A stretch of DNA of 30,961 nt from Trueperaceae bacterium (GTDB lineage: Bacteria > Deinococcota > Deinococci > Deinococcales > Trueperaceae). Position 1 is the stretch's first letter, and the number at the start of each line of letters is the position of its first letter. A program made the position numbers and the translations under genes. The stretch spans positions 12,236 to 43,196 of the forward strand of contig JBBDRK010000032.1 of assembly GCA_040905465.1 (NCBI GenBank). Direction: 5' to 3'. Under the pieces are notes generated by a model that searched no databases, was not told the origin of the DNA, and saw nothing but the letters and a program-made list of their open reading frames with translations. Below, piece by piece: positions 67 through 30,752 of the stretch.

Positions 67-2366
67 TGATCGTCGCCGACGCAACACTCGAAAAGCTGTC
101 GTTTCTCCGAATCCGGGCGGCGCTTGCCGAACGCTCGTCGACGCGCTTCGGTGTCCGACTGGCGCTGGAACTGGCGCCGCTGACCGACGCAGACGAGGTG
201 CAACGGGCGCTGGAGCGATGCGACGAGGTGCTGGCTGGTGGCGATCTGTCGCTGGGCGGCATCGAGGACATAGAACCGCTGCTGGCCAGGCTGCGTGAGG
301 GTGGCTTCGCCGACGGCAGCGAGCTCCTGGAGATCGCCTATACTCTCGACTCGGCCGCTCGTGTCAAGCGGGCGATAGTTGCATCCGGCCGCCCCCGGCT
401 GACCGAGCTGGCGTCGGGAATGGGGTCCTTCGACGGCGTGCTGAGGCAGGTGCGTGAGCAGTTGGACGCCGACGGAAACGTCAGAGACGACGCCACTCCC
501 AAATTGCGCGACATACGCCGGCGCCTGAATCCGCTTCGCAATCGGATCCGGGAGCGGCTTCAGCAGCTTCTCGGGCACTATTCCGAACATATCCAGGACG
601 CCATAGTCACCCTTCGACGCGATCGCTTCGTGATCCCCGTCAAAGCCTCCTCGCAGTCGCGAGTGCCCGGGATCGCCCTCGACAGCAGCGACTCAGGTGC
701 CACCGTCTTCATCGAGCCTTCCTCGATCGTGCCACTCAACAACGAGCTGGCGCTGCTCGAGTTCGAGGAGCGTGACGAGGTCCGGCGGATCCTGATCGAA
801 CTCGGCAGGCGCCTGTCCACGGCGCCGGGCGTGGACGAAACCCTGGAACTGGTCGGCCGGCTCGATCTCAGTCAGGCCGGCGCGGCGCTGGCTCGCGACT
901 GGCGGCTGGTTCGGCCCACCTTTTCGGGCGGTGGCCGGGTCCGCCTCCAGGGCGCGCGCCACCCGTTGATCGAGGGCTGCGTCCCGAACGACCTGGAGCT
1001 CAGCGCGGATCTGCGCCTGCTGGTGGTAACGGGCCCGAACGCGGGCGGCAAGACGGTGTTGATAAAGACCCTCGGACTGGTTGCGCTGATGGCTCATTGC
1101 GGCCTGTTCGTGGCGGCGTCGAAGGAGTCGCCCGCGCTGCTGCCGCGTTTCGAGCGGCTGCTGGTAGACATCGGCGACGAGCAGAGCATCGAGGCCAGCC
1201 TGTCGACCTACGCCGGGCACCTGACCAACCTGCGCCGCATCGTCGACGAGGCCGACGAGCGCGTTCTGGTGCTGATCGACGAACTCGGTTCCGGCACCGA
1301 TCCCGACGAGGGGGCGGCACTGTCGCAGGCGATCCTCGAACGGGTGCTGGCTGCCGGCGCGCGTGGCCTGATCACCACTCACCTGGCGCCGCTCAAGGTG
1401 TTCGCATCCCAGAGTTCGGGCGTGCAGAACGCGGCGATGCGTTTCGACGTCGATCGGCTGCAGCCGACGTATCGGCTGACGGTAGGTCAACCGGGCAGAT
1501 CGTACGCCCTGGCGATAGCGCGGCGGCTCGGGCTGGCCGGCGATCTCCTGAGCCGCGCCTCCGAACTCCTCGGCCCGGCGGGTGAACGGCTCGAGTCGCT
1601 GCTCGAGGAGCTCGACGCTCAACGCGAGACGTTGCGGCTGGAGCTGAAGGAAGCTCAGGAGGCGGAGGAGCAAGCCTTGCGGGAAGCCGAGCTGCTTCGC
1701 CGCCAGATAGAGATCCTGCGCGGCAAGGAAGCCGACGTGCTGGCGGCCGCGGCAGAACGTGCCGACGAGCTGTTGCATGACACGCTGCAGCGCGCCAAGG
1801 AGTTGAAGCGGACCGCCACGAGCGATCCGGCCAGGCGCCCGCAGGCGCTTGAAGAGATCCACAAGCTGCGGCAGGGTGCGCGCAAGGAAGCGGTCGGCCG
1901 CCAGCCCGCCAGGACGGTGGAGCGCTGGGAACCCGGAGCGCTCGTGCGGGTGGACGCCTACGACGCCGAAGGTCCGATCGTGGAAGTCCGCGGCGACGAC
2001 CTGGTGGTTCAGCTGGGACTGTTGAAAGTGGAAGTGCCGCGCCGCGAGGTGAAGCTGGTCGAGCGTCAGGTGGCCAAGCCGAAGTCCGGCGCGGCACCGC
2101 CCCACCCGGCTGGCGCCGGCCGCGTCGAGGAGCTCAATATCCGCGGCGCACGCGTCGAGGAGGGTCTCGAGCAGGTTCGTGAGCTGATATTCGAAGCGCA
2201 CGCCCTCAAGATGGAGAAGGTCCGGATCCTTCACGGCAAGGGCACCGGCGCCTTGCGTGACGCGGTGCGTTCCTACCTCAAGGACGAGAAGCGCGTGGAG
2301 AGGTTCGAAGACGCCGTGCCGTATGAAGGCGGGCACGGGGTAACGGTGGCGTATCTGAGGCTGTAG
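66..2366 (+). CDS. mutS2: Endonuclease MutS2
   Basis: 766 aa; Walker A GPNAGGKT, IGDEQSIEASLSTY and LIDELGSGTDP MutS ATPase motifs, coiled coil, C-terminal Smr domain (ILHGKGTGALR). Confidence 0.97.
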   Translation: MIVADATLEKLSFLRIRAALAERSSTRFGVRLALELAPLTDADEVQRALERCDEVLAGGDLSLGGIEDIEPLLARLREGGFADGSELLEIAYTLDSAARVKRAIVASGRPRLTELASGMGSFDGVLRQVREQLDADGNVRDDATPKLRDIRRRLNPLRNRIRERLQQLLGHYSEHIQDAIVTLRRDRFVIPVKASSQSRVPGIALDSSDSGATVFIEPSSIVPLNNELALLEFEERDEVRRILIELGRRLSTAPGVDETLELVGRLDLSQAGAALARDWRLVRPTFSGGGRVRLQGARHPLIEGCVPNDLELSADLRLLVVTGPNAGGKTVLIKTLGLVALMAHCGLFVAASKESPALLPRFERLLVDIGDEQSIEASLSTYAGHLTNLRRIVDEADERVLVLIDELGSGTDPDEGAALSQAILERVLAAGARGLITTHLAPLKVFASQSSGVQNAAMRFDVDRLQPTYRLTVGQPGRSYALAIARRLGLAGDLLSRASELLGPAGERLESLLEELDAQRETLRLELKEAQEAEEQALREAELLRRQIEILRGKEADVLAAAAERADELLHDTLQRAKELKRTATSDPARRPQALEEIHKLRQGARKEAVGRQPARTVERWEPGALVRVDAYDAEGPIVEVRGDDLVVQLGLLKVEVPRREVKLVERQVAKPKSGAAPPHPAGAGRVEELNIRGARVEEGLEQVRELIFEAHALKMEKVRILHGKGTGALRDAVRSYLKDEKRVERFEDAVPYEGGHGVTVAYLRL

Positions 2367-2474: not shown

Positions 2475-3116
2475 ATGACTCAGGCGGCCCCGGTGATAGC
2501 GTTCGACCTCGACGGCACGCTCGTCGATTCATTGGAAGACATAGTTGCAAGCTTCCGACACGCCTTCGAGGAGCTCGGCCTCCCGTCGCCAGACGAACCA
2601 TCGGTGCGGCAGCTCGTCGGCAGGCCTCTCGACGAGATGTATGGGACGTTCGTGCCTAAGGGCCGGGTGGCGGCCCTGTCAGCTGCCTACCGCCGTCATT
2701 ACCCGAGGAACTTCACGCGTCGAACGCGAATCTTTCCCGGCGTGCTGGAAGTGCTGGGGGCGCTGCGCACCCGCGGTTACCGGCTGGCGGTGGCGACCAG
2801 CAAGCGAACCGCCATGGCCGAGGCGCTGGTAGCGGCTGTCGGGCTGGCGCCTCATGTCGATCACGTGCAAGGGACCGACGAGTTCGCACACAAACCGGCT
2901 CCCGACGTGGTGCTCCGGGCAGGGGAGGCCCTAGCCGGCCGCGTCGCCTGGATGGTCGGCGACACCGTAGGGGACATCCTGGCGGGCCGTGCTGCGGGCG
3001 CGGCGACCTACGGCGTCACCTGGGGTACCCATGACGAGGAGACACTGGCCGCTGCACGGCCCGATGTGCTCGAGCCGAATCTGGACCGTCTGCTCGAGCT
3101 TACCCGGATCGATTAG
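2475..3116 (+). CDS. HAD-superfamily hydrolase (phosphoglycolate phosphatase-like)
   Basis: Motif I FDLDGTLVDS, motif II ATSK, KPAP and MVGDT; start moved to ATG 2475, 7 nt after CATACT. Confidence 0.93.
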   Translation: MTQAAPVIAFDLDGTLVDSLEDIVASFRHAFEELGLPSPDEPSVRQLVGRPLDEMYGTFVPKGRVAALSAAYRRHYPRNFTRRTRIFPGVLEVLGALRTRGYRLAVATSKRTAMAEALVAAVGLAPHVDHVQGTDEFAHKPAPDVVLRAGEALAGRVAWMVGDTVGDILAGRAAGAATYGVTWGTHDEETLAAARPDVLEPNLDRLLELTRID

Positions 3117-13948: not shown

Positions 13949-15373
13949 ATGCCACCGCTCGATCCTCAGAAGAGCCTGCAGCACGTCACCCTGCCGGCGA
14001 GGGAGGCACGCGTGGCCGCCGACGTCGATGTGTTGGTGGTCGGCGGCGGCCCGGCCGGACTCGGCGCCGCGCTGGGCGCCGCCTGGGCGGGTGCCGAGGT
14101 GGTGCTTGCCGAGCGGTACGGGTTCCTGGGCGGAAACGCTACCGCCGCGCTGGTGATGCCGCTGATGTCCCACTTCACCCAGAAGGAGCCGGCCGCCAAT
14201 CCGGACCTCACCCGCTTGCTGCCCGCCGATCATGGACCCGGCGATCCGGTAGTGGCCGGAGCGCTCGAGGTCCTGTTGCACCGACTGATCTCCTCCGGCT
14301 GGGGTCTCGCACCAGACCAGAGCACCGGCTTTACCGTGCCCTTCGATCCCGAGGGGTTCAAGGCGGTCGCGCTGGAGCTGCTCGACGAGGCGGGAGTAAA
14401 GTTCCTCCTCCACTCGTTCGCGTCGTCGACGGTTGGTGAAGACGCTACCGAGGGCGTGGTTTTCGAGACGAAGTCGGGACCGCTGGTGATCTACGCCGAT
14501 GCCGTCGTGGACTCTACCGGTGACGGTGACGTGGCGGCAGCGGCGGGGGCCGAGTATCGGGTCGGACGCGAAGAGGACGGCCTGGTGCAGCCGATGACGT
14601 TGATGTTTCGAATGGTGGAGTTCGAGCGGCCGGACTTCGCCGCCTACGTGCGTGACAACCCGACCGAGTGGCGCGGGGTTCACGGGCTGTGGTCGCTCAT
14701 CGACGACGCTACGCGCGCCGGCGAACTCGACCTGCCCCGGGAAGACATACTGCTGTTCGCGACTCCCTACGAGCGCGAGTTGAGCGTCAACAGCACTCGC
14801 GTAGGCGGTGTGCTGGGCACCGACGTCTGGGACCTCACGCGAGCGGAGTGGGAGAGCCGGCGCCAGGTGAGGCAGATCGTCACCTTCCTGAAGAAACGCG
14901 TGCCGGGCTTCGCCGACGCCTATATGGCACAGAGCGGGATCCAGATCGGGGTGCGCGAGACCCGCAGGATCATGGGTGATTATGTGCTGACGGGCGCCGA
15001 TGTGGTGTCGGCCCAGCGTTTCGATGACGTCGTAGCGCGTGGGGCCTACCCGATCGACATCCACAATCCCAGCGGCAAGGGCACCGTCCTGAAGAGGCTG
15101 CCTCCGGGCGAGGCCTACGACATCCCGTTGCGCTGCCTGCTCCCGCGCGGCGTCGAGCGGTTGCTGGTGGCCGGCCGCTGCATCTCGGGAACACACGAAG
15201 CGCACTCCTCCTATCGGGTTACGCCGATTGCGATGGCGACCGGCCAGGCCGCCGGCGTCTGTGCCGCCCTGGCCTCATCGGAGCGTTCCTCGCCGCGAGC
15301 CGTCTCCAGCTCCCGAGTGCAGGAGGCGTTGCTGGCACAAGGTGCCAACCTCCGAGACCTCGGTCGAGGGTGA
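13949..15373 (+). CDS. FAD-dependent oxidoreductase (FAD_oxidored-type)
   Basis: DVLVVGGGPAG, ERYGFLGG, VDSTGDGD, GVRETRRI, YDIPLRCL, AGRCIS and ATGQAAG; starts 3 nt after the upstream gene. Confidence 0.92.
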   Translation: MPPLDPQKSLQHVTLPAREARVAADVDVLVVGGGPAGLGAALGAAWAGAEVVLAERYGFLGGNATAALVMPLMSHFTQKEPAANPDLTRLLPADHGPGDPVVAGALEVLLHRLISSGWGLAPDQSTGFTVPFDPEGFKAVALELLDEAGVKFLLHSFASSTVGEDATEGVVFETKSGPLVIYADAVVDSTGDGDVAAAAGAEYRVGREEDGLVQPMTLMFRMVEFERPDFAAYVRDNPTEWRGVHGLWSLIDDATRAGELDLPREDILLFATPYERELSVNSTRVGGVLGTDVWDLTRAEWESRRQVRQIVTFLKKRVPGFADAYMAQSGIQIGVRETRRIMGDYVLTGADVVSAQRFDDVVARGAYPIDIHNPSGKGTVLKRLPPGEAYDIPLRCLLPRGVERLLVAGRCISGTHEAHSSYRVTPIAMATGQAAGVCAALASSERSSPRAVSSSRVQEALLAQGANLRDLGRG

Positions 15374-15400
15374 GTTGCCAGAACGGATTGAAGTAGGTAT

Positions 15401-15470
15401 AAAAAAAGAACCTTGGAAGGATCTCCGCCGGGGGGGCAGCGGGGTGCGGAGATGCAACTCCCAAAGTTCT
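15401..15470 (-). ncRNA. Candidate ~70-nt hairpin small RNA with a C-rich loop and U tail
   Basis: 13-bp stem (2 G-U pairs that form only on the minus strand), 8-bp stem, 17-nt loop ACCCCGCUGCCCCCCCG and U7 tail; promoter directly upstream. Confidence 0.6.
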
Positions 15471-15475
15471 AAGAG

Positions 15476-15503
15476 ATTCTAACAGACTCAGCGCATATTG
15501 CAA
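15476..15503 (-). promoter_or_regulatory. Sigma70-type promoter for the candidate sRNA
   Basis: TTGCAA (15503-15498), 16-nt spacer, TAGAAT (15481-15476) with an extended TGn element. Confidence 0.6.
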
Positions 15504-15639
15504 GGCCGTGAGAAGGATGTGGGAATCTTCCCAAGCTCGCCGGCCGGCTCTTTCGGTCGCCCGGTCCGCCTGCACCGACCTATTCGGCGGGTGCGGCGGC
15601 TAACGGGCCGCGGGCCGGCATTGGAGCGGCGGCGATTAA

Positions 15640-16173
15640 TTAGTTCAGCGTGGCGCTCAACGTGACCTGCAGAAGCAGATCCTCGGAAGCAGCCATGGTA
15701 GACCTGGCGCCGACGCGGTAGCGCGTCGCTTCCGAGGACTGCTCGCGGAGCGTGCCATCGTTGCGGTAGTAGCCCGAATCCGAGCCGCTGAGGGCGCTTA
15801 CGTCGGCGCCCAGGTTCGATTCGAAGTCGTTGTCGTCACTGGTGCCCGCCACCCGCCAGGCGAGCAGGTAGTCGGGCTGAAAGCCGGAAAGGGCCAGGCT
15901 CAACGAGTTCGAGCTCAGGTCGGAATAGGAGACCCGGATGATGAAGTTGGTCCCGTAGGTGTAGAAGTTGTTGCTGAGCTGGCCGAGCGAGTAGCCGCTG
16001 CCGAAGTCCTCGGGGGTCGGCGAGTCGGTCATTATCTGCACGCTGACGGAGGGCTGGGCGAGACCGACGGCGCAACTCAGCAGGAGGAGTATCAGCAGCG
16101 CCCGCCGGTACGGCGCTGGGGCGGGCCGCTTGCGACATTGGCTTCTCCACGAGAGTCGCGAGTTCTTGAGCAT
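15640..16173 (-). CDS. Secreted pilin-like subunit (minor), paralog of 16397-16984
   Basis: Signal peptide (RRALLILLLLSCAVGLA|Q); shares LxQLS..YTY..F..R..YS and VGA....ASxDL...VTLxATxN with the upstream gene; GAGGTAGG RBS. Confidence 0.75.
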   Translation of the reverse strand: MLKNSRLSWRSQCRKRPAPAPYRRALLILLLLSCAVGLAQPSVSVQIMTDSPTPEDFGSGYSLGQLSNNFYTYGTNFIIRVSYSDLSSNSLSLALSGFQPDYLLAWRVAGTSDDNDFESNLGADVSALSGSDSGYYRNDGTLREQSSEATRYRVGARSTMAASEDLLLQVTLSATLN

Positions 16174-16308
16174 CTCAGTCAGCCTACCTCAAGAGAGAGT
16201 CGCCTCGTTGGGACAGCCGCGTCGGGCGGCCGGGCTGGTGTGACGCGGTTGGGGCGGCCTTCCCGGGGCCGCGGGGTTGAGGGGCCGGGCCCGAGCGCCG
16301 TAGGGACC

Positions 16309-16355
16309 AACAGTTGGGGCACGCGAAGCGAAGTGCCTCGCGTGCCCCAACTGTT
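16309..16355 (-). terminator. Perfect 18-bp stem-loop after the major subunit gene (terminator or mRNA stabiliser)
   Basis: AACAGTTGGGGCACGCGA (16309-16326) and TCGCGTGCCCCAACTGTT (16338-16355) around an 11-nt loop. Confidence 0.8.
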
Positions 16356-16396
16356 AGAGCAGGACAGGTTCCAGTGAACCCGGGGAAGAGCGGTCG

Positions 16397-16984
16397 TTAG
16401 TTGACGGTCGCGGTGAGGGTGACCGTGGTTTGGGTGAGGTCGGCGGAAGCGGACGCCTTGGCCTGGGCGCCGACCTCGAAGAAGGTGAATTCAGTGGTAG
16501 TCGTGGTCAATGCTTCGAAGGCCACTTGGGGCGGGCCGGCATCGGCATCGCCCTTCACCGAACCGGCGTTAGCGCCGGATGCGGCCGTACTACCGAGTGC
16601 CGTGGCCGTGGTACCGAGGACGACCGGAGCGGTCTTTACAGCAGAAGCGGTGGCGGAGAACGCCAGGAAGCGGTAGGCCACGTCGTAGTCGGCGTCGACG
16701 GCGTCGATCTTGATGTCCAGGCTGAGAGTGCTGCTGGCGGCAACGTTGCTGTAGTCGATCCTGACCGTGAAGGGGTCGCTGTAGGTGTACGCCGACGTGC
16801 TGAGCTGGCGCAGGTCTATCGCCTTCTGTAGGGCCGTCAGATCGGAGCCGGCTTCGTTCTGCAGGGTGACGGTGACCGTGTTGGACGGCATCTGTCCGTC
16901 CAGCGTGAGGCTGTCGCTCTGGGCGAAGCTTGCGGCGATCAGCGCGATCAGCACGGTAGTGCCTAGTATCTTGACGATCTTCAT
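16397..16984 (-). CDS. Secreted pilin-like subunit (probable major fimbrial subunit)
   Basis: AAGGAG RBS; Sec signal MKIVK...AASFA|Q; Ala/Thr/Ser-rich and beta-rich; alternating C-terminal strand TTVTLTATVN. Confidence 0.8.
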   Translation of the reverse strand: MKIVKILGTTVLIALIAASFAQSDSLTLDGQMPSNTVTVTLQNEAGSDLTALQKAIDLRQLSTSAYTYSDPFTVRIDYSNVAASSTLSLDIKIDAVDADYDVAYRFLAFSATASAVKTAPVVLGTTATALGSTAASGANAGSVKGDADAGPPQVAFEALTTTTTEFTFFEVGAQAKASASADLTQTTVTLTATVN

Positions 16985-17107
16985 GTGGTTCTCCTTGGAT
17001 CCTGAATTCGCCCGATCGGGCGCTTATGAGTACAGCCCGGCCAGAGATGCCGGTCCTGGCTGGGCGCTTGACTCGTTCGAGGGAAAGGATGAACACGGAA
17101 GATCATC

Positions 17108-17181
17108 CCTCGGCCGGTTGCGCTTCAAGCTCCATCCACCCCAAGCGCCCATGTGCAGGGTGGACCTCGTCGCTTCCGAGG
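17108..17181 (-). promoter_or_regulatory. Cyclic di-GMP-II riboswitch aptamer
   Basis: CCUCGGAAGCGACGAGGUCCACCCUGCACAUGGGCGCUUGGGGUGGAUGGAGCUUGAAGCGCAACCGGCCGAGG: P1 CCUCGG/CCGAGG, conserved GGAA, kink-turn GA/GA, P3 GUCCACCCU/GGGGUGGAU, pseudoknot GCGCUU/AAGCGC and conserved GCAACCGnCC. Confidence 0.9.
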
Positions 17182-17214
17182 CAGTTCGGCCTAACCTCAG
17201 GTCGAACCTCGTTG

Positions 17215-17220
17215 ATTCTA
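17215..17220 (-). promoter_or_regulatory. Candidate -10 box (TAGAAT) for the riboswitch-subunit transcript
   Basis: TAGAAT about 34 nt upstream of the aptamer, just downstream of the hairpin that follows the chaperone gene. Confidence 0.55.
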
Positions 17221-17250
17221 CAGGTGCGCTCTCATCAAGTCGTCAGATTC

Positions 17251-17283
17251 CCGACATCGATGCGCCCGGCATCGCGATGTCGG
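17251..17283 (-). terminator. Hairpin after the chaperone gene
   Basis: CCGACATCG/CGATGTCGG 9-bp arms plus inner ATGC/GCAT; no clear U tract. Confidence 0.5.
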
Positions 17284-17306
17284 CAGGTTCACACCGCTAC
17301 GGACAC

Positions 17307-18098
17307 CTAGCGCTCCGTCTCGATCGTTATCGTGGTGACCGCTTCGGCTCTCAGTCCTTCCTGGTACTCGAGAACCGCGAACACGCCGTACCGGCCCGCC
17401 GCCAGCTCGGCCGGCAGGGCCACCGGGAAGTCGATGGTGAGCCCGGGAAGCGCCACCCCCTGTTTCTCGATGGTCTCGCTGGCGCCGTCGCTGCCGTCGA
17501 GCGACAGGGTGAGAGTGAAACGCTGATAGCCGTTCCCCGAGTTGCGGATCGTGACCACGACTCCGGCGCCATCGTCGACACTGATTGAGGACAGATTCTC
17601 GATGCCCAACTCGTGCTCGGCCACTCCCTCTATCTCGACGGCCGTCACCATCGCGTAGCGGATGTTGAACATCAGCGCGTTACCCTGCTCGGTATCGGCC
17701 GAGGGCGGAACCTCGACCCCGATGACCCCCCAGTAACCCCCCTCGGGTTCGTCGGGGACGGTGACCGACATCGGAACTTCGGCCGTTTCGCCCGGCTCCA
17801 GGACGAACTCCAGTCGCTCCAGCTCGGCGATCTGAAAGAGGCTCTGGGGCAGGCTCGTGGCCGGAATGTGCTGGAGGGATCCGTTGGATAGTTGGGCGTA
17901 GTCGTTGAAGAAGATCCTCGCCTCGGCCCGGCTGTCGCCGCGGTTGACGATCGTGTAACGAAGAACCCGAGACTCGCCGGGAGCCAGCGACACCTGGCGC
18001 GGCCCGTTGATGTTGACCTGGGCGAGAGCGCTACCCGCTTGAGCTGCGATCATCGCTACGAGAATCGCAGCGGAGAACTTGAGAAGTCCGAATTTCAC
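17307..18098 (-). CDS. Periplasmic pilus chaperone-like protein (PapD/EcpB/DUF916-like, two Ig-like domains)
   Basis: Signal peptide (ALA|Q); LAPGESR..YTIVN, FVLEPGETAEV...VP, GYWGVIGVE and second domain VTIRNSGN...ALPG...GRY; GAGGAGG RBS. Confidence 0.75.
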   Translation of the reverse strand: MKFGLLKFSAAILVAMIAAQAGSALAQVNINGPRQVSLAPGESRVLRYTIVNRGDSRAEARIFFNDYAQLSNGSLQHIPATSLPQSLFQIAELERLEFVLEPGETAEVPMSVTVPDEPEGGYWGVIGVEVPPSADTEQGNALMFNIRYAMVTAVEIEGVAEHELGIENLSSISVDDGAGVVVTIRNSGNGYQRFTLTLSLDGSDGASETIEKQGVALPGLTIDFPVALPAELAAGRYGVFAVLEYQEGLRAEAVTTITIETER

Positions 18099-18111
18099 CT
18101 GTATTCCTCCT

Positions 18112-21100
18112 CTATCGTGGCGGTGCCGGAAGCGGCACGTTGTAACCGGGGATGAGCGGGATCGGAGCGTAGCGATCCACCTCGAACGACACTATCCGCC
18201 GTTCCACCAACCCGTCGGTGAAGGTAACCTCTATCGGCACGTCGACCCGCTCTGCTGCGTCGAGGGGTGATATCGACAGCACCCACAGAAGCTGCCTGCC
18301 CTCCACCTGCCGCTCCCGCGAGCTCTGCAGGTGGCGCAAGTTGGTGATCCGTATGCTGGAGATCTCCTTGGTCGATGTGACGTAGACGGCGAGGGTGATG
18401 CCCGGCGGGACGGTGGCGGACGTGGCGCGGAAAGAGAGCAGCTCGTCGGACCCGGGCAGCGATACGAGGTACTTGGGATCAACCGGGTTTGGCTGAAGGG
18501 GCCGGCCGCGCTCGTCGATCGCTTCTGGCTCCCCGGGCTCCGGCCGGGTCTCGACCGGCCGATCCTGGGCCTCGCCGGCCGAGCTGGCTGGCTCCTCCAC
18601 CGGCCCGAGTTCGGCCGTGGCCACCTTGGTTTCAGCCGCTGGCGCCGGTTCGCCGGTAACGATGGCCTGCACCGTTCGCTGCGCTACCTGCCCCTCCTCG
18701 AACTCGATCGTCACCTCCAGGTTCAATGCGCCGGCGGGGACCGGTGGGACGGGAACCTCCAGGGTCCACGTCCCGCTCGCGCCGTCCGGCCTTTCATGCA
18801 CCGTGCTGGCGCCCGCCGCGCTGATCCTCACCCGCGCGATCGGCGCCGGCGAGGTCACGACGAGCCTGATGGGTTGGTCTCGGCCGGTCAGTAACGAGGC
18901 CAACTCCAGCCTGACTGGGGGCGTAATGGCGCTGGGATCGAGGACGGTCCGCCTGGGCGCCGGTACCGTGAGAAGCAGCTCCTCGTCCTCCTGCCCGAGG
19001 TCCACGGTCAAACGCTCCCGTTCGCCGGACACGCCAACGGTGTACTCGCCGGCGGGCAGTCCGGTCATCCGGACCGAACCGAGCGGCAGCGAAGCGCTCG
19101 CCCAGCGCGACACCGGACCCTGCACCAGCACCCTGACGTCGCGGGCCCGGCCGCTGTCCCTGAGTTCACCGCTATCCCGGTCCCGGTAGCGAACGACGAT
19201 ATCCAGTGCGGATGTCGGAACGGCGGCCAGGGTGACGTCGCCGCCCGGCTGGACGAGAATCGGCTGGTCGGCAACGAACGTGTCGGGCGGCAGGCTCGCC
19301 TCGTCGACCCGTACCTCGCACTCTCCAGGTCTGCCCCGCAACGTGGCGCTGCCGGTGCTGTCGGTCGATTCCGGCTGACCGCACCCCAGCAGGCGGACGT
19401 TGGGCAGCCCGCGGCGCCCTCCCGCGCCTTCGAACTCCACCTGAACCCGCCTTTCGGTGGGGTCGGGACCGTCCAGAAAGGAGGCCAGGGCACGGGAGGT
19501 CGGGATGAAGGTGCTGTAGGAGACACCGAGCCCTACCGCCAGGCCGCCCTCACCACGGATCGGGGCCTCGAGCCCGAGCTTGGCGCTGAAGCCGCCGTGC
19601 GCGGAGTAGGCCGCGCTCACTCGTCCGCTGAGCGAAGCGTCGGCCAACAGGTCCGGGGCTTCTAGACCCAGGCCGGCGGTCAGGGTGCCGGAAGGCAGGA
19701 GCGCGGTGTAGTCGGCGCTAGCGCCAGCCTCCAGGGTCCCCGCGTCGGTCCAGCGCCCGGCCAGGTCGAGCATCACCGGGCCAACGGGAAGCGAGGCGCC
19801 GGCGTGGACTACCGCGGTGCCGGCGCCCAGCAACGGCAATTCACCGGCGAGCCGGAATGACGCCGATCCCACGGCGAACTGCTGATCCGCGTTGAGCAGC
19901 AGACTTTGCGGCGCGGCTCTCACGCCGAATCCGAATCCGCCTGCGCTTGCCCGCAGTGCGGCGTTCGAGAAAGTCCAGTCGTCCAGCGCGGCGCGAAGCG
20001 AGAACGCAAGTGGTCCCAGGCCGGGTAGTCGGGCCTTGTATCTGGAACTGCCCGACACTCTCGTGCCACCCTCCAGCAGCTCGGCAGCCACCTCGAGTCC
20101 GAACGAGCTGGTGGCGTACTGCGCCCTGCCACGCCAGCGAACGTTCTCCGCGCTGGCGAATCTGAGGGAGGCGTGAAACGGGGCCAATCCCGCGCTGACC
20201 TCGGCGGTCACCTCGTCGCCGGCGATATTCAACGCCGCTTGCGAGCGGAGCCGGGGACCCTCGAACACCACTCCGAAGCGAGGCGATTCGTCGGCGCGCT
20301 CCAACGGTATCGCGGCTCCGATAACGATGTCCCCGAGGAACGGCAGTCGCGTGAAGCGCTGGGACAGGTACAAGCCTCTACCGACGTTGCCGGCCGGGCT
20401 CCCGACGCTGCGGTCGGTGAGTTCCAGGCTCGAGTTGCGATAGCGCAGCAACAGCCGGGGTTCGGGAAGTTCGGAGAAGCCGATTCCTCGCGCGCTCAGC
20501 TCCAGGTAGGTGTTGCGACTCAGGCTTCCCACGAACGACACCGAGAACGGTTTCTCAGGCAGTGATAGTGGCTGCCCGAGCGTCGCGCTCGCGTCCGCGG
20601 CAACGGTTGCCAGTAGGCCGTACCCGGCCCGGCGGCCGGTGCCCGCGGCGGTGAGGTAGATCGTCTTTCGGACGGTATCGGCGCCGCCCTCGAGGGTAAC
20701 AGCCAGGGTGCGGTTACCGTTTGTCAGCGCCGGAAGCTCCACGTGAATGGTCGCCGCGCTTCCAGGGGCAACGGTGGTTGCCGGCGCCTTGGCCGCGACG
20801 CCGGAGAACGAGAGCTCGACCCGTCCAGGGGTATTGCCGCTGTTTCTCACCACCAGCGGAACCAGCGTGGAGCGGTCCCGGAACGCCAGCACCCTCTCGG
20901 GAGCCTCCAGTTCGAAGGCCACCAGCCTGGGAAGCTCTACCGTCAGCGAAACCGGGTACGGCTCATCCTCGCCCTCCACCAGGAAGTGAAGCGTCAGCTC
21001 GGTCAGGCGGCCTAGCTGGGCGTTACTGCTGAGCATCACCGGCAGGAGCGGGGCGGCGGAAGGGGAGAGCACCCGCGGGAAGGTGAGCGTGAGAGCTTGT

Positions 21101-21324
21101 GGAAGATCGGCACGCACTCGTCCGTCACCGGAGTCCCAGCCCTGGAACTCGACGCGCAACTCGGCCGCCTCGAAGCGCTCCCCAAGCGCCAGCACGGCCC
21201 GCGCCCGACCGTTCTCGGCCATCACGGTTGTGGCTGACTGCTGTGCCGAGGCGATTCCTGACAACAAAAGCGCGAGCAGAGCCGCAGCCAGGCGCCGTCG
21301 GGCCCTGCCCGAGTACGAGCGCAA
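18112..21324 (-). CDS. Large exported beta-rich protein, atypical usher-like outer-membrane protein
   Basis: Signal peptide (ASA|QQ); N-terminal Ig-like domain (VRNSGN); long amphipathic beta-strand region; SdrD-B/carboxypeptidase-regulatory-like motifs (GLPNV...TDSTG, GLPAGEYTV); duplicated C-terminal domain; AAGGTG RBS before TTG. Confidence 0.65.
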   Translation of the reverse strand: MRSYSGRARRRLAAALLALLLSGIASAQQSATTVMAENGRARAVLALGERFEAAELRVEFQGWDSGDGRVRADLPQALTLTFPRVLSPSAAPLLPVMLSSNAQLGRLTELTLHFLVEGEDEPYPVSLTVELPRLVAFELEAPERVLAFRDRSTLVPLVVRNSGNTPGRVELSFSGVAAKAPATTVAPGSAATIHVELPALTNGNRTLAVTLEGGADTVRKTIYLTAAGTGRRAGYGLLATVAADASATLGQPLSLPEKPFSVSFVGSLSRNTYLELSARGIGFSELPEPRLLLRYRNSSLELTDRSVGSPAGNVGRGLYLSQRFTRLPFLGDIVIGAAIPLERADESPRFGVVFEGPRLRSQAALNIAGDEVTAEVSAGLAPFHASLRFASAENVRWRGRAQYATSSFGLEVAAELLEGGTRVSGSSRYKARLPGLGPLAFSLRAALDDWTFSNAALRASAGGFGFGVRAAPQSLLLNADQQFAVGSASFRLAGELPLLGAGTAVVHAGASLPVGPVMLDLAGRWTDAGTLEAGASADYTALLPSGTLTAGLGLEAPDLLADASLSGRVSAAYSAHGGFSAKLGLEAPIRGEGGLAVGLGVSYSTFIPTSRALASFLDGPDPTERRVQVEFEGAGGRRGLPNVRLLGCGQPESTDSTGSATLRGRPGECEVRVDEASLPPDTFVADQPILVQPGGDVTLAAVPTSALDIVVRYRDRDSGELRDSGRARDVRVLVQGPVSRWASASLPLGSVRMTGLPAGEYTVGVSGERERLTVDLGQEDEELLLTVPAPRRTVLDPSAITPPVRLELASLLTGRDQPIRLVVTSPAPIARVRISAAGASTVHERPDGASGTWTLEVPVPPVPAGALNLEVTIEFEEGQVAQRTVQAIVTGEPAPAAETKVATAELGPVEEPASSAGEAQDRPVETRPEPGEPEAIDERGRPLQPNPVDPKYLVSLPGSDELLSFRATSATVPPGITLAVYVTSTKEISSIRITNLRHLQSSRERQVEGRQLLWVLSISPLDAAERVDVPIEVTFTDGLVERRIVSFEVDRYAPIPLIPGYNVPLPAPPR

Positions 21325-21534: not shown

Positions 21535-22293
21535 GTGCGTCACCCGCCCTTCAGCGCCCTGTCTCGGGTTTACGACTCGATCATGGCCGATGTCGATTAC
21601 GAGTCGTGGTGCGAGTTCGTCGTGCGGGAGGCCTCGAAGCGCGGCTACCGCGGCGGGCCGGCCCTGGATCTGGGCTGCGGCACCGGCAACTCAACCGTTC
21701 CCCTGCACCGGCGAGGCTTCGAGGTAACCGGCCTCGACTCCTCTCCGGAGATGCTGGCGGTGGCGCGCGACAAGCTACCTCAGCTTGATTGGCGTTTAGG
21801 GGAGTTCTCCTCCTTCGACCTGCCGGCACGCTTTTCGCTCGTCGTGTCGATGTTCGATTCGCTCAACAACCTGCTGTCGGCTGACGAGTTCCGTGCCGCT
21901 GCTGCCCGCGTTGCCCACCATCTGCTGCCCGGCGGCCTGTTCCTGTTCGACGTGAACACCGCAATTGGGTTGCGGGAGCTGTGGGAGGGCGGCCGGGTGG
22001 AGGGCTGGGCGGAGGAGGTTCACTACAGCTGGCTGCACAGCTTCGATGCCTACGCGAACCTGGCACGAGTGGAGGCGTCCTGGGAAAGTGGCGGCCGCCG
22101 GCATAGCGAGGTCCATTACGAACGGCCCTTCGAGGCCGACGAGACGGTGGCGCTTCTTGCCGACGCCGGTTTCGAAGAGATAGAGGTACTCAACTTCCCC
22201 GATGGTTCCGTTGCGCCGCCGGACGCGGAGCGTATCTGGCTCTGCGCTCGACTTTCCTCGGGCCGCGGCCAGTCGAGCCCGGGCCGCGGCTAG
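21535..22293 (+). CDS. Class I SAM-dependent methyltransferase
   Basis: YDSIMADVDY, LDLGCGTG, GLDSSPEML, FDSLN and PGGLFLFD. Confidence 0.93.
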   Translation: MRHPPFSALSRVYDSIMADVDYESWCEFVVREASKRGYRGGPALDLGCGTGNSTVPLHRRGFEVTGLDSSPEMLAVARDKLPQLDWRLGEFSSFDLPARFSLVVSMFDSLNNLLSADEFRAAAARVAHHLLPGGLFLFDVNTAIGLRELWEGGRVEGWAEEVHYSWLHSFDAYANLARVEASWESGGRRHSEVHYERPFEADETVALLADAGFEEIEVLNFPDGSVAPPDAERIWLCARLSSGRGQSSPGRG

Positions 22294-23271: not shown

Positions 23272-26200
23272 TCAAGCCGCGGTGTCGGCCCGGCGCTCAT
23301 GCACAGAGCGCCAGCGGGCGACTAATTGGTCGGGCAAGCGCAGCCTGCTCTCACGTGGACCCTCCGTGCAGGTTAACGCCTCCATCAGCGCCGGAACACG
23401 CAACGCTTCGAATCGGCTACTGCCCTCCACCTCATTTGCGAAGATCCGCAGCAAGGGTTCGTGCAGCGCTTCAAGCGAGAGGTCGGCGAGAGAGTTCGCC
23501 AGCAACCGACCTGCCTGGGCGTCGAGACCGGAGCGAAGTGCCGCCTGGATTTGCAGGGCAATGAGCCACGATTTCAGCCGCAGGTCGGAGCGTTCGAGCC
23601 CGGAACAGAGTTGTGCCAAGGCCTTCAGGCCCTGCTGGGCGAATTCGAAAGCCTTTTCCAGGTCATTTAACCCATTTGACCTGAGCGTGGCCGACGCGAG
23701 ATGCGCAAAGCCTTCGGCGTCGTGGTAAGGGACACGCGAGTCTGTAAGGGCGAAACGAGCTTGGGCGGCTGCGTCGACGGCCTCGTGCGCCAAGAGTGCT
23801 CCCAGCAGGTAGGCCTGACGGCGAAGAGACCACCGGAGCCTGCCGTCCTGTTGCGCGGCGAGGTGCGGTTGAACGCTGGCCAGCAACGATCGGGCATGCG
23901 CGAGGTCGACTGGCTCGTCGACACGTTCCACGGTCCGTGCGTAAGGCGTTAGGTACGGCTGGCTGAGTGACCGGGCGAGGTAGGCGTGAGCAAGCCGCTG
24001 TGTGGCTCGGAGACTCCGATAGCCGGTGTCGATCCCACAGCGACGCCCATAGTCGGCGAAAATGCAGAGCACCCGATCGAGCATGATGATTGCCTGCTCG
24101 AAAGCGCCTTGGGCCAGTGTGGTCAGCGCGTACTCCTCGTCGCACAGCGAAAGGTGGAAGGCTCGCTCCGGGCCCTGCCGAATGTCGCGCGCGGAACCTA
24201 CCGTTTCGCGCGCGGCTGACAGGTCGGCCAGCGACAGGTCGAGCTCACCTCGCATCCTCAGGAGCCTGGCCCGCCGGGTCAGATAGCGCGCCTGCTCGGC
24301 GCTTGGCGCCTGGTTCAGCCTGGCGAGCTCGACGGCATGATCCAGCTCCTCCATCGCAGCATCGAACCTTCCCATCATCGAGAGGACGTCGCCTTTCTGG
24401 AAGGCGACGCGCGCTTCTATCAGCTCGTCGCCGGTCGGGACACTCGTAAATTCGCGCAGCGCAAGTTCCAGGTCGCCCCTGTCTTTGGCTATCATCCCGG
24501 CCCACACGCCTGCCTTGACGACGACCAATCGGCCCTCCCGACCGCGTCCCCGCACCGCGGGCAATCTTGGACGCGCGACCTTCTCGACCAGGTCGGCCGC
24601 CTCGTCGAGCGCCCCGCGCCATCTCGCGATGCTGCCTTGCACGAGCGCTCGTTCGGTCTCGCGCAGCTCGTCGGTTACCGGCGGCCACTTCGCCAGCAGC
24701 GCCTCGGCCCGGTCCACCTTGCCGCGCAGTACCGCTCCTTCGGCTCGCTGGACCAACGCCCAGGCGCGAAGCCCCTGTTCTTGCGAGGAGCTCAGAGCAG
24801 CGAGCGCCTGGATCGCGCCGGGGTGCTCATACGAGCCGAGCCGGACGTAGTGGTTTGCTACTCGCAGCGCGATTCTCTCGAAAACCGGGCCGTTGCGCAA
24901 CTCGGCCTGCGCGGCGGCCCAGAGCGGCCCTATCAGCGGCTGCTGGATGCCGCAGCGCTCCATCCAGCCGCTCAACGAGCGCCATTCCCTGGCTTCGAAC
25001 AGGTGCTGAACGTAGCGGCCGGCGGAGTCGCTCCGTGGATTCAGCTCGGCCTCTATGCGATAGAATTCGCTCGCCCGCAGATTCAAGTGCCGGTGCTGCT
25101 CGGGCCGGCGCTCCCGCAGCTCCTCTTGCAAAAGGCGGGTGAATTGGCGGGAAAAGGCCCGCCAGCTGTCGGCCGTCGACGGTGCCGGGTCGAGGAACGC
25201 GAGTTCGAGAGAGCTCGGCTCGTCATCGAACTCCCGAACGGCACGGAGCGCGACCTGTGAGAAGGCGTGGTACGGCGGCAGCGTGAGGGTGGCCAGCGCG
25301 GTCAGAAAATCCGCGAGTCGTTGCTGTGTGGCGTCGTGAACCAGCGAGGCAAGGCGAACAAGATTGACATCCTTGCCCCTAGGCGAGTCCGGTTCGCCCT
25401 TCGGCAAGCCATCGCGAGCCTCGGTCAGCAGAATCAATGTCCGGAGATCCTCATAGGAGCGCCCGGCGCGCCTGACAAGTTCCTCCTGCTGCGCGGCCTG
25501 CAGTTGAGGCAACCGGGCACGCACGAAGCGGCGCGCCTCGTGGGCGGTTGGTGGTTTCAGGCGTACCGGTTCCTCGAACCCGCCCCTGTCGGTGAGAATG
25601 GCCGTCGGCAGTTCGGTGATGCTCACCAGCATGCACACGTGCGGCAAGCGGGAGAGCGGCTCGAACAAGGAGAACCACAGCCACTCGGGGGCCGCGACCC
25701 GGGGCACCTCGAGTGTGTTCAGCCGCAGTGGCGCCCCGCCTAGATGCTCCACGCCGCCGGAGGATCGCGACAGGTGGGCGAGCAGCACGAGGTCTTCTTG
25801 GCGCAGTCGCGCTTCGTCCAGGATCAGGCGCGCTACTTCGGATTGAGCGTCGGCTTGCACGGCAAACGCACCGGACGGAGAGATCTTTGCTAGCTTCCCT
25901 TCAATAGCCGCCTGTGGGAGGCCCAACGCCGAGCCGAGTCGGACCAGGCCGGCCGAAACGTGCCCGGGCACGAATTCCAGCCTCACGATTCGCGCGCTTG
26001 CCCGAGGCGGTGCTTCGAGAGCCTCCTGCGCGTAATCGATGAGTAGAGTCTTACCGGACCCGGGTCGCCCGGTCACCAGAAGCTTGGGGCGCCCCCCTGC
26101 ACGTACTCCGCTCACGAAAGTCCGAAAGGCCTGGCGCTTCTCCCTCCCCAGCGGCCTTAGGATCTCGGCTTCGGCGCCACCGGAGTCGACTACCAACGCC

Positions 26201-26478
26201 TGGATTTCCGGATCGTGCAACTGCTCGCCCGAACTTTGCCGCCACAGCTCCGCCAGAATATCGAAGAGGACCCTCTTGTCAGACAGCCTGCCCTTATCGC
26301 GATAGATGATATTGCGGACCACGTTGGGATTGGCGTTTCGTAGTTCCATCTGCTTGCGCAACCAGTTGATGCTGCCCTTTATGCCGTGCTCGTCGCGTTG
26401 CTTCCCCGCCGCATCCCTTACCGCGTGCAAGAGCCGACGCCAGGGGCTGGTTTTTCCCGACTGCTGTTGCATGGCCAT
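23272..26478 (-). CDS. Large STAND-like protein: N-terminal HTH-like region, P-loop NTPase, TPR-like C-terminus
   Basis: Walker A LLVTGRPGSGKT; TPR-like helices (e.g. VAFQKGDVLSMMGRFDAAMEELDHA); start at ATG 26478, 7 nt after TAAAAT. Confidence 0.8.
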   Translation of the reverse strand: MAMQQQSGKTSPWRRLLHAVRDAAGKQRDEHGIKGSINWLRKQMELRNANPNVVRNIIYRDKGRLSDKRVLFDILAELWRQSSGEQLHDPEIQALVVDSGGAEAEILRPLGREKRQAFRTFVSGVRAGGRPKLLVTGRPGSGKTLLIDYAQEALEAPPRASARIVRLEFVPGHVSAGLVRLGSALGLPQAAIEGKLAKISPSGAFAVQADAQSEVARLILDEARLRQEDLVLLAHLSRSSGGVEHLGGAPLRLNTLEVPRVAAPEWLWFSLFEPLSRLPHVCMLVSITELPTAILTDRGGFEEPVRLKPPTAHEARRFVRARLPQLQAAQQEELVRRAGRSYEDLRTLILLTEARDGLPKGEPDSPRGKDVNLVRLASLVHDATQQRLADFLTALATLTLPPYHAFSQVALRAVREFDDEPSSLELAFLDPAPSTADSWRAFSRQFTRLLQEELRERRPEQHRHLNLRASEFYRIEAELNPRSDSAGRYVQHLFEAREWRSLSGWMERCGIQQPLIGPLWAAAQAELRNGPVFERIALRVANHYVRLGSYEHPGAIQALAALSSSQEQGLRAWALVQRAEGAVLRGKVDRAEALLAKWPPVTDELRETERALVQGSIARWRGALDEAADLVEKVARPRLPAVRGRGREGRLVVVKAGVWAGMIAKDRGDLELALREFTSVPTGDELIEARVAFQKGDVLSMMGRFDAAMEELDHAVELARLNQAPSAEQARYLTRRARLLRMRGELDLSLADLSAARETVGSARDIRQGPERAFHLSLCDEEYALTTLAQGAFEQAIIMLDRVLCIFADYGRRCGIDTGYRSLRATQRLAHAYLARSLSQPYLTPYARTVERVDEPVDLAHARSLLASVQPHLAAQQDGRLRWSLRRQAYLLGALLAHEAVDAAAQARFALTDSRVPYHDAEGFAHLASATLRSNGLNDLEKAFEFAQQGLKALAQLCSGLERSDLRLKSWLIALQIQAALRSGLDAQAGRLLANSLADLSLEALHEPLLRIFANEVEGSSRFEALRVPALMEALTCTEGPRESRLRLPDQLVARWRSVHERRADTAA

Positions 26479-26529
26479 TGGCCCGATTTTACGCGACCAC
26501 GAGCTCGAGCACATAGTCGTGCACGGGAA

Positions 26530-30497: not shown

Positions 30498-30752
30498 GGG
30501 AGGCAGGCCAGGTAATTGTGTTGTAGCAGCAGCGAGGGCTGGTCCGCCTCCCCAAAGCGGGGGAGAACTCTTCCCTGTGGCGAATCTCTCAGGACCGGTC
30601 CGGACACTCGCGTCTCCGCTCTTTCGGTTGCGCTGGCTCTGTCAGCAATCGTCGGATGCCACAAGCGGCTCGCCCCTGCCGAGCCCGCGCACCGATTGTC
30701 GGCGTCCGCTCTGGACACGTGATTTCCGGCGGCCGATGCTATGCTCGACGGC

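Follow-up and report, generated by a model that had tools for sequence, protein, structure and literature searches.

The minus strand of the window, i.e., the whole stretch of 30,961 nucleotides from a Trueperaceae bacterium that was analysed, very probably carries a gene for a small RNA (sRNA) of about 70 nt, folded as a single hairpin and belonging to a family that, judging from the searches described below, is confined to the Trueperaceae (Deinococcota) among the genomes covered. The RNA family is new, the kind of RNA is already known, and both the gene and its structure look well supported by the comparison of the family members. The reading that is considered the most probable (with a probability of about 0.6) is that of a stand-alone sRNA gene whose product may pair, through a C-rich apical loop and without Hfq, with G-rich RNAs. 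The Trueperaceae, which are related to Deinococcus, tolerate radiation and salt. A stand-alone hairpin sRNA had been proposed at this place in an earlier note on the same DNA, and the proposal is borne out at the level of sequence by the maintenance of the promoter, of the structure, and of the loop across 28 of the 36 genera sampled.

The elements of the putative gene and the neighbouring genes are reported in Table 1. The layout that the earlier note had described, i.e., a TTGCAA hexamer placed 16 nt before an extended −10-like element and followed by a hairpin and a U-run, was found again in all its details by the reading of the sequence, by the fold, by the promoter scan, and by the GC profile; the same applies to the two G-U pairs confined to the minus strand and to the higher AT content of the segment. 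The 21-bp hairpin (15470-15407, minus strand) begins about 5–7 nt past the −10-like element, and its promoter is the only promoter-like site disclosed by the consensus scan in the region 14800-16400 (0.1 ± 0.3 sites in shuffled sequences). The minimum free energy (MFE) of the minus-strand fold is −28.7 kcal/mol (z = −4.25), and none of the 200 shuffled sequences was as stable; the plus strand reaches −24.1 kcal/mol (z = −0.82), a value matched by 40 of the 200 shuffles. Such a weak plus-strand fold is expected, since the two G-U pairs (U15465-G15412 and G15460-U15417) exist on the minus strand only. The GC content is 0.51–0.52 across 15400-15549 versus 0.59–0.72 in both flanks.

Table 1. Position of the predicted sRNA, of its elements, and of the neighbouring genes in the window.
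Feature	Position	Strand	Basis or remark
−35-like hexamer TTGCAA	15498..15503	−	sequence reading and promoter consensus scan
Spacer from the −35 to the extended −10 element	16 nt	−	sequence reading
Extended −10-like element TGt-TAGAAT	15476..15484	−	sequence reading and consensus scan
Predicted sRNA, ~70 nt	15401..15470	−	fold and covariance model R1, 93.9 bits
Outer stem, 5′ arm AGAACUUUGGGAG	15458..15470	−	partner 15407-15419
Segment uuGc between the outer and inner 5′ arms		−	sequence reading
Inner stem, 5′ arm AUCUCCGC	15446..15453	−	partner 15421-15428
17-nt apical loop ACCCCGCUGCCCCCCCG	15429..15445	−	unpaired in the MFE and centroid structures
Inner stem, 3′ arm GCGGAGAU	15421..15428	−	fold and alignment
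Single c between GCGGAGAU and CUUCCAAGGUUCU		−	sequence reading
Outer stem, 3′ arm CUUCCAAGGUUCU	15407..15419	−	fold and alignment; continues into UUUUUU
U-run, intrinsic-terminator-like 3′ end	15401..15407	−	U15407 doubles as the last base of the stem
Orphan cluster, four genes (177, 195, 263, and 1070 aa)	15640-21324	−	
Three further ORFs of the cluster	16397-16984, 17307-18098, 18112-21324	−	
Methyltransf_25 gene	21535-22293	+	family match

The RNA folds into a single rod, whose sole long unpaired part is the apical loop, with 12 C among its 17 nt. From the conserved promoter and its spacing, we infer that the region is transcribed with a 5′ end at 15470/15469, the 3′ end being placed at the U-run. 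Since the hairpin would extend from the start to the terminator, the whole RNA would consist of a stem displaying a 17-nt C-rich loop. The terminator scan of the region 14800-16400 did not report the element itself, because its rule admits only loops of 3–8 nt and therefore misses a hairpin with a loop of 17 nt.

The genome from which the window comes (3.53 Mb, 64.9% GC, 95% complete) harbors a second copy of the element on another contig (C74:61068-61144, minus strand), and these two copies are the only matches of R1 in it. The second copy is endowed with its own promoter (TTGCAA-17 nt-TGCATAAT) and with a U-rich tail; its inner stem and loop are identical, letter by letter, to those of the window copy, and its outer stem (AAGCUUUGAGGA/UUCUCAAAGCUU) is unlike that of the latter. 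A total of 50 distinct members of the family were gathered, 47 of which were aligned, leaving out one lacking its 3′ half (L044) and two truncated by contig ends (L054 and L055); members with a variant loop, such as L023, were missed by the pattern used for the gathering. The covariation in related genomes that the earlier note had indicated as a check is present: compensatory changes occur in 17 of the 21 pairs, for a total of 94 cells, among the 47 members. In the full structure, 87.4% of the 985 cells are paired, versus 41–55% when the 3′ partner is slid by 1–3 columns, and none of 500 column shuffles equalled the observed value on any of five measures. RNAalifold predicted 15 pairs, 11 of which show compensatory changes.

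The two stems are conserved in different ways. Compensatory changes are found at all 13 pairs of the outer stem. In the inner stem, 93.3% of the cells are paired, and the sequence hardly changes at the six pairs closest to the loop, with CG in 42–44 of the 47 members at four pairs. Of the 12 invariant columns of the alignment, 11 fall in the loop. The 6-bp stem and the C-rich loop form an invariant module of 29 nt. The loop is unchanged across host loci whose GC content ranges from 0.39 to 0.77; one-base variants of its length exist (8 C in L011, one extra C in L022), and divergent paralogues retain chiefly GCUGCCCCC.

G-U pairs occur often within the outer stem (e.g., 21 GU at one position and 9–10 UG at two others), and their frequency points to an RNA read from the minus strand. 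Each of them corresponds to an A-C mismatch on the opposite strand; together with the strand asymmetry of the folding, this argues against an element acting at the DNA level, such as a protein-binding palindrome or a recombination site, even though an inverted repeat may be functional on DNA too. A short coding gene could also be envisaged, since a 60-aa ORF (TTG ORF 15457-15275) begins within the hairpin; however, the one-base changes in loop length would shift its frame, no spacer separates GGGAG from the TTG, and the downstream flanks are not conserved. Either of these two possibilities is therefore regarded as hardly believable.

The promoter is conserved as well. In 37 of the 46 members with enough flanking sequence, a TANNNT motif starts 41–32 nt before the loop core, versus a mean of 3.1 (maximum 6) out of 46 in 45 control windows; the remaining nine members carry, in the same place, either CATAAT or TAATAAT (six cases) or TAnnnC after TTTACA (three cases). 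The complete arrangement TTGNNN-N15-19-TANNNT precedes the stem in 12/46 members versus 0–1 in nine control windows. A T-run is located 3′ of the stem in 32/46 members, the lineages with the highest GC content having a weaker tail that is only U/C-rich. Neither beyond about −60 nor past the tail was any conservation found in the gathered members. As far as the sequences tell, a promoter located directly upstream of the hairpin is kept independently of the neighbouring genes.

Concerning the distribution of the family, R1 (E ≤ 1e-3) matched 65 of the 121 Trueperaceae genomes sampled, distributed over 28 of the 36 genera; among the 77 genomes with a completeness of 90% or more, 46 were positive. 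The positive genomes contain 1–5 copies each (24.6–93.9 bits, most of them full-length at scores of at least 35 bits). Two genera of the family gave no match in any of their genomes (0/12 and 0/11), five negative genera (95–98% complete) were still negative at E ≤ 1, and genome G050 of the same 121-genome sample, which is flagged as unpublished and supports none of the conclusions, had no match either. When a sample of 151 genomes of the phylum was searched, the Trueperaceae matches scored at least 39 bits, with the only exception of one at 22.6 bits, and the best match outside this family reached 25.7 bits. The weak matches (up to 25.7 bits) in Deinococcaceae, Thermaceae, and a third sister family were discarded as apparent coding sequence or chance; the six outside matches that were inspected fall in apparent coding regions and have neither a promoter nor a U-run. 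BLAST on 40 relatives gave a consistent picture, with clear matches (E < 1e-6) in about 18 of the 24 Trueperaceae genomes and only short chance matches in four sister families, where the inspected ones are located in apparent coding sequence. Lastly, the exact 22-mer CCCCGCTGCCCCCCCGGCGGAG occurs in 39 places among 185,579 species genomes, and the corresponding records are labelled Truepera or Trueperaceae (32), Deinococcales (2), and ‘uncultured bacterium’ (5).

The author of the earlier note could not assign the hairpin to a family, and neither do the databases. The search of the window against Rfam 15 (E ≤ 10) retrieved only five sub-threshold chance matches, i.e., ZFAT-AS1_3, SBRMV1_UPD-PKf, mir-1908, sR23, and narK. 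The first one, at 15386-15472 on the plus strand, has a score of 22.7 bits versus a gathering score of 70 and refers to a model of a human lncRNA fragment without structure, and it was taken as a chance match. The same search with 17 member loci gave no match at E ≤ 0.01, and no covariance-model homology to 6C, RsaE, sX13, or any Rfam 15 family was detected. No small RNA of Truepera or Trueperaceae was found in the open-access literature.

The element is embedded between two convergent genes, ending at 15373 (plus strand) and at 15640 (minus strand). The former encodes an FAD-dependent oxidoreductase (PF12831, E = 5e-126); the latter belongs to the orphan cluster of Table 1, which the earlier note had labelled a fimbrial operon. 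The four ORFs of the cluster gave no match in Pfam or NCBIfam. Two of the products, of 177 and 195 aa, are distantly related paralogues whose N-termini resemble signal peptides; for the longer of the two, a protein-language-model look-up retrieved clusters bearing the names type 1 fimbrial or SCPU/Csu-type (0.92–0.94). With these language-model neighbours behind it and no counterpart among the Pfam and NCBIfam families, ‘fimbrial’ is better considered a lead than a finding.

Two types of gene neighbourhood can be recognized. In the relatives with the window-type setting (type A), a divergent Methyltransf_25 gene starts about 100–150 nt upstream of the element, and a convergent oxidoreductase gene lies downstream (FAD_oxidored in the same genus and in one other genus; in five genomes that are more distantly related, a Zn-dependent dehydrogenase). 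In two congeners, the element and its promoter are kept and the orphan cluster 15640-21324 is absent. Given that the methyltransferase gene, which in the window lies at 21535-22293, adjoins the element in the relatives, the cluster is, on the basis of gene order, a lineage-specific insertion between the methyltransferase and the sRNA genes. In the other setting (type B), which is that of the second copy and is shared by this genome and another genus, the element follows a class II aminoacyl-tRNA synthetase gene and precedes a convergent DUF4397 gene. The existence of two different conserved settings suggests that the RNA is tied to neither neighbour. As for other features of these regions, the Methyltransf_25 gene seems leaderless, TATACT being located 5–7 nt before its GTG in the window and in the three closest relatives (L008, L009, and L010), and TATACT also precedes the methyltransferase start in L021. 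The window also contains, at 23272-26514 on the minus strand, a 1080-aa ORF with weak matches to AAA_22/AAA_16 and TPR (E ~ 1e-5) and the look of a STAND-type ATPase.

The second role suggested in the earlier note, that of operon terminator, stands in part. It is possible in this genome, because the scan disclosed no other terminator-like site in 15640-15503; as a conserved role it does not hold, since the two congeners lack the upstream cluster. The ending of the ‘fimbrial’ transcript can thus at most be a local by-product. A more radical version would regard the hairpin as nothing but a long intrinsic terminator, serving either the upstream cluster or, bidirectionally, both convergent genes, with promoter hexamers arising by chance. 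The position between two convergent gene ends, the stem followed by a U-run, and the lack of other terminator-like sites throughout 14800-16400 agree with this idea. On the other hand, the congeners keep the element and its promoter without the cluster, the second copy is located in a different context, the −10 motif lies at a fixed distance in 37/46 members, and the plus strand folds no better than shuffled sequences do and has no U-run after the hairpin. Moreover, the invariance of a 17-nt loop over 28 genera is not terminator-like and does not fit a plain intrinsic terminator of the upstream operon. On this evidence, such an explanation appears highly improbable.

The model proposed for the sRNA gene is the following. 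Transcription would begin on the first hairpin base, driven by a sigma-70-type promoter (15503-15476), and the hairpin, together with the U-run, would terminate its own transcript. The exposed loop, above all GCUGCCCCCCC, would then pair with G-rich segments in one RNA or in a small number of them, thereby altering the translation or the stability of the target independently of Hfq. Since this design is like that of the sRNAs that use C-rich loops to pair with G-rich sequences, Hfq-independent base pairing of the loop is rated as the most likely mechanism. No match to Hfq, CsrA, or Ro (TROVE) was found in the 95%-complete genome, and genes for KhpA- and KhpB-like proteins are present in it. 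The bacterial Y RNA/Ro (Rsr) system was discarded, as the search gave no TROVE match (the Deinococcus radiodurans control being positive) and no Rfam match.

The earlier note had suggested that the RNA acts in trans on G-rich Shine-Dalgarno regions and that the targets of the loop might be predicted computationally. Neither expectation was upheld by the scans. The loop lacks CCUCC, which speaks against an anti-Shine-Dalgarno mimicry, and many genes here look leaderless; the Shine-Dalgarno idea is thus unsupported as stated. In the same genome, a search for complements of at least 10 nt (G-U allowed) retrieved 678 sites, the long ones lying only on the antisense strands of the two RNA genes themselves. 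In 2630 roughly called initiation regions, the real loop forms 158 duplexes at or below −24 kcal/mol, versus 157 ± 45 for thirty shuffled loops, i.e., with no enrichment; the 14 top candidates showed no functional theme, and two of them had wrong starts. The best single-genome candidate was glpD, with GGGGGGCAGC directly 5′ of its GUG, and it was discarded because the site is absent in all the 28 orthologues inspected. Words of the GGGGGGCAG type near starts (4/26) are too few to be meaningful. The comparison was extended to a second, complete Trueperaceae genome (G024), of which 2.4 of the 3.26 Mb were used, obtaining 539 reciprocal-best ortholog pairs: 14 of them are at or below −24 kcal/mol in both genomes, versus 16.3 ± 6.8 for twenty shuffled loops, and the sites of the top candidates are non-homologous. 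Nothing special emerged from the complementarity to tRNA and tmRNA, nor from the 16S gene of G024 and the ~5 kb downstream of it. The methyltransferase and Zn-dehydrogenase neighbours have either a leaderless look or no complementarity to the loop.

Five lower-GC genomes were searched with the complement of a 15-mer, allowing up to three mismatches, and a clear enrichment was observed in one of them only (G006, 29 versus 2 in the control). The matches inspected there turned out to belong to an unrelated repeat, which probably accounts for much of the excess. The end of the repeated element (L149, L164, and L169, in G006, a genome of ~39–45% GC) reads CCCCCC-TTATTAA-GGGGGG-CTA-GGGGGG, followed by a conserved AT-rich stretch, and one of the three copies inspected is located at a contig end. 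In three low-GC congeners, a 12-mer was found almost only at the RNA gene itself; a 9-mer gave 27 sites versus 3 in the reversed control, and these were rejected, being mostly located in apparent coding sequences, with two of them corresponding to Gly-Gly-Gln ABC-signature codons. A further observation concerns contig C18 of the genome under study, which harbors near position 30714 (plus strand) a homopolymer palindrome made up of a run of ~18 G, a U, 6 G, and at least 12 C.

These target tests have a low power, due to the crude gene calls and starts, to the GC-rich genomes, and to scans run with no accessibility model. Their outcome lowers the case for a broad regulon and is compatible with one or a few targets.

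KH domains have a preference for C-rich RNA, and the invariant 29-nt module may be viewed as the binding site of a conserved protein, e.g., of the KhpA/KhpB-type KH family, which the RNA would either titrate or guide. According to this possibility, the stem-loop would be a docking site for such a protein, or for an RNA of a G-loop/C-loop network, and would contain no mRNA seed. Several observations are in agreement with it: the inner stem is near-invariant in its sequence, beyond what pairing requires, the 17-nt loop is constant across hosts of very different base composition, complementary sites are not enriched with respect to shuffled loops, and KhpA-/KhpB-like genes are present where Hfq was not found. 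In addition, KhpA and KhpB are reported to bind sRNAs in Deinococcus radiodurans (bioRxiv 10.1101/2025.09.18.676964), as stated in that preprint. The conservation of the inner-stem sequence, taken by itself, agrees with a protein or a fixed RNA partner no less than with a seed. However, the two neighbourhoods of the element differ and neither contains a gene for an RNA-binding protein, and what the divergent paralogues retain, chiefly GCUGCCCCC, is seed-like. On the whole, protein docking is deemed possible but unlikely; if true, the minimal hairpin would be, for Deinococcota, a regulator of a novel type, either a ribonucleoprotein or an RNA sponge.

A different scenario involves contig C52 of the same genome, which harbors, at ~660-900 (minus strand), a structured leader whose three hairpin loops are of the UUGGGAG type; a tiny ORF (MKNTGKRIFYSVVF...) follows it. 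At a distance of about 2 kb, at ~2915-3000 (plus strand), the contig carries an RNA made up of two hairpins, with CCUCCCAA/ACUCCCAC loops and a tail of seven U. The co-occurrence of this G-loop leader and of this C-loop RNA, and the fact that the 5′ arm of the window RNA matches one of the leader loop motifs at 10/12 positions, might suggest an RNA–RNA network in which CUUUGGGAGUUG, in the 5′ arm, mimics the UUGGGAG loops and acts as a decoy for the second C-loop sRNA. However, the CUUUGGGAGUUG motif is buried within the 13-bp stem, and most family members carry CUUUGAGGG in its place; the resemblance is thus lineage-specific and may be due to chance, and this possibility appears very improbable.

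Coming back to the preferred reading, i.e., a stand-alone sRNA gene whose loop pairs with G-rich RNAs, the RNA would be a nearly minimal regulator, in which one hairpin is also its own terminator. The fixation of 17 loop bases in host genomes spanning from 39% to 77% GC suggests a strong selection on an interaction. The R1 covariance model is ready to be used for annotation, and the family offers a clean system in which to test RNA regulation independent of Hfq in the Deinococcota. It might also be, after the CUCCCAA-loop RNA of contig C52, the second member of a possible lineage-wide use of C-rich loops. The two RNAs share C-rich hairpin loops and a U-tail within the same genome; unlike the window RNA, that of C52 has two hairpins, a different loop sequence, no match to R1, and a complementary leader nearby, whereas the window RNA is without a complementary neighbour.

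Outside this lineage, RsaE/RoxS of Firmicutes are abundant and conserved sRNAs described as acting through C-rich loop motifs on G-rich mRNA sites. The sX13 sRNA of Xanthomonas, likewise abundant and conserved, reportedly acts in the same way, through C-rich loop motifs on G-rich sites of mRNAs (PMC3771888). Both differ from the window RNA in having several hairpins and short CCCC/UCCC motifs, in place of one 17-nt loop that is invariant throughout, and neither shows homology to it in Rfam 15. RepG of Helicobacter pylori uses as its seed the C/U-rich terminator-hairpin loop, which pairs with a G-repeat in the leader of an mRNA, and its single known target is tlpB. In the window RNA, too, the sole exposed segment is the loop of the terminator hairpin; the sequence and the host are unrelated to those of RepG, and the duplex scans disclosed no G-rich partner here.

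The last term of comparison is the 6C sRNA of Actinobacteria, which has two C-rich loops. In the account of the Mycobacterium representative (B11/6C), the C-rich loops are described as binding several mRNAs without an RNA chaperone (PMC6486639). The window RNA differs from 6C in having one C-rich loop, in belonging to another phylum, and in showing no similarity to it either in sequence or by covariance model. As in the 6C case described there, and in a genome where no Hfq was found, it is a small RNA of high-GC bacteria that presents a C-rich hairpin loop.
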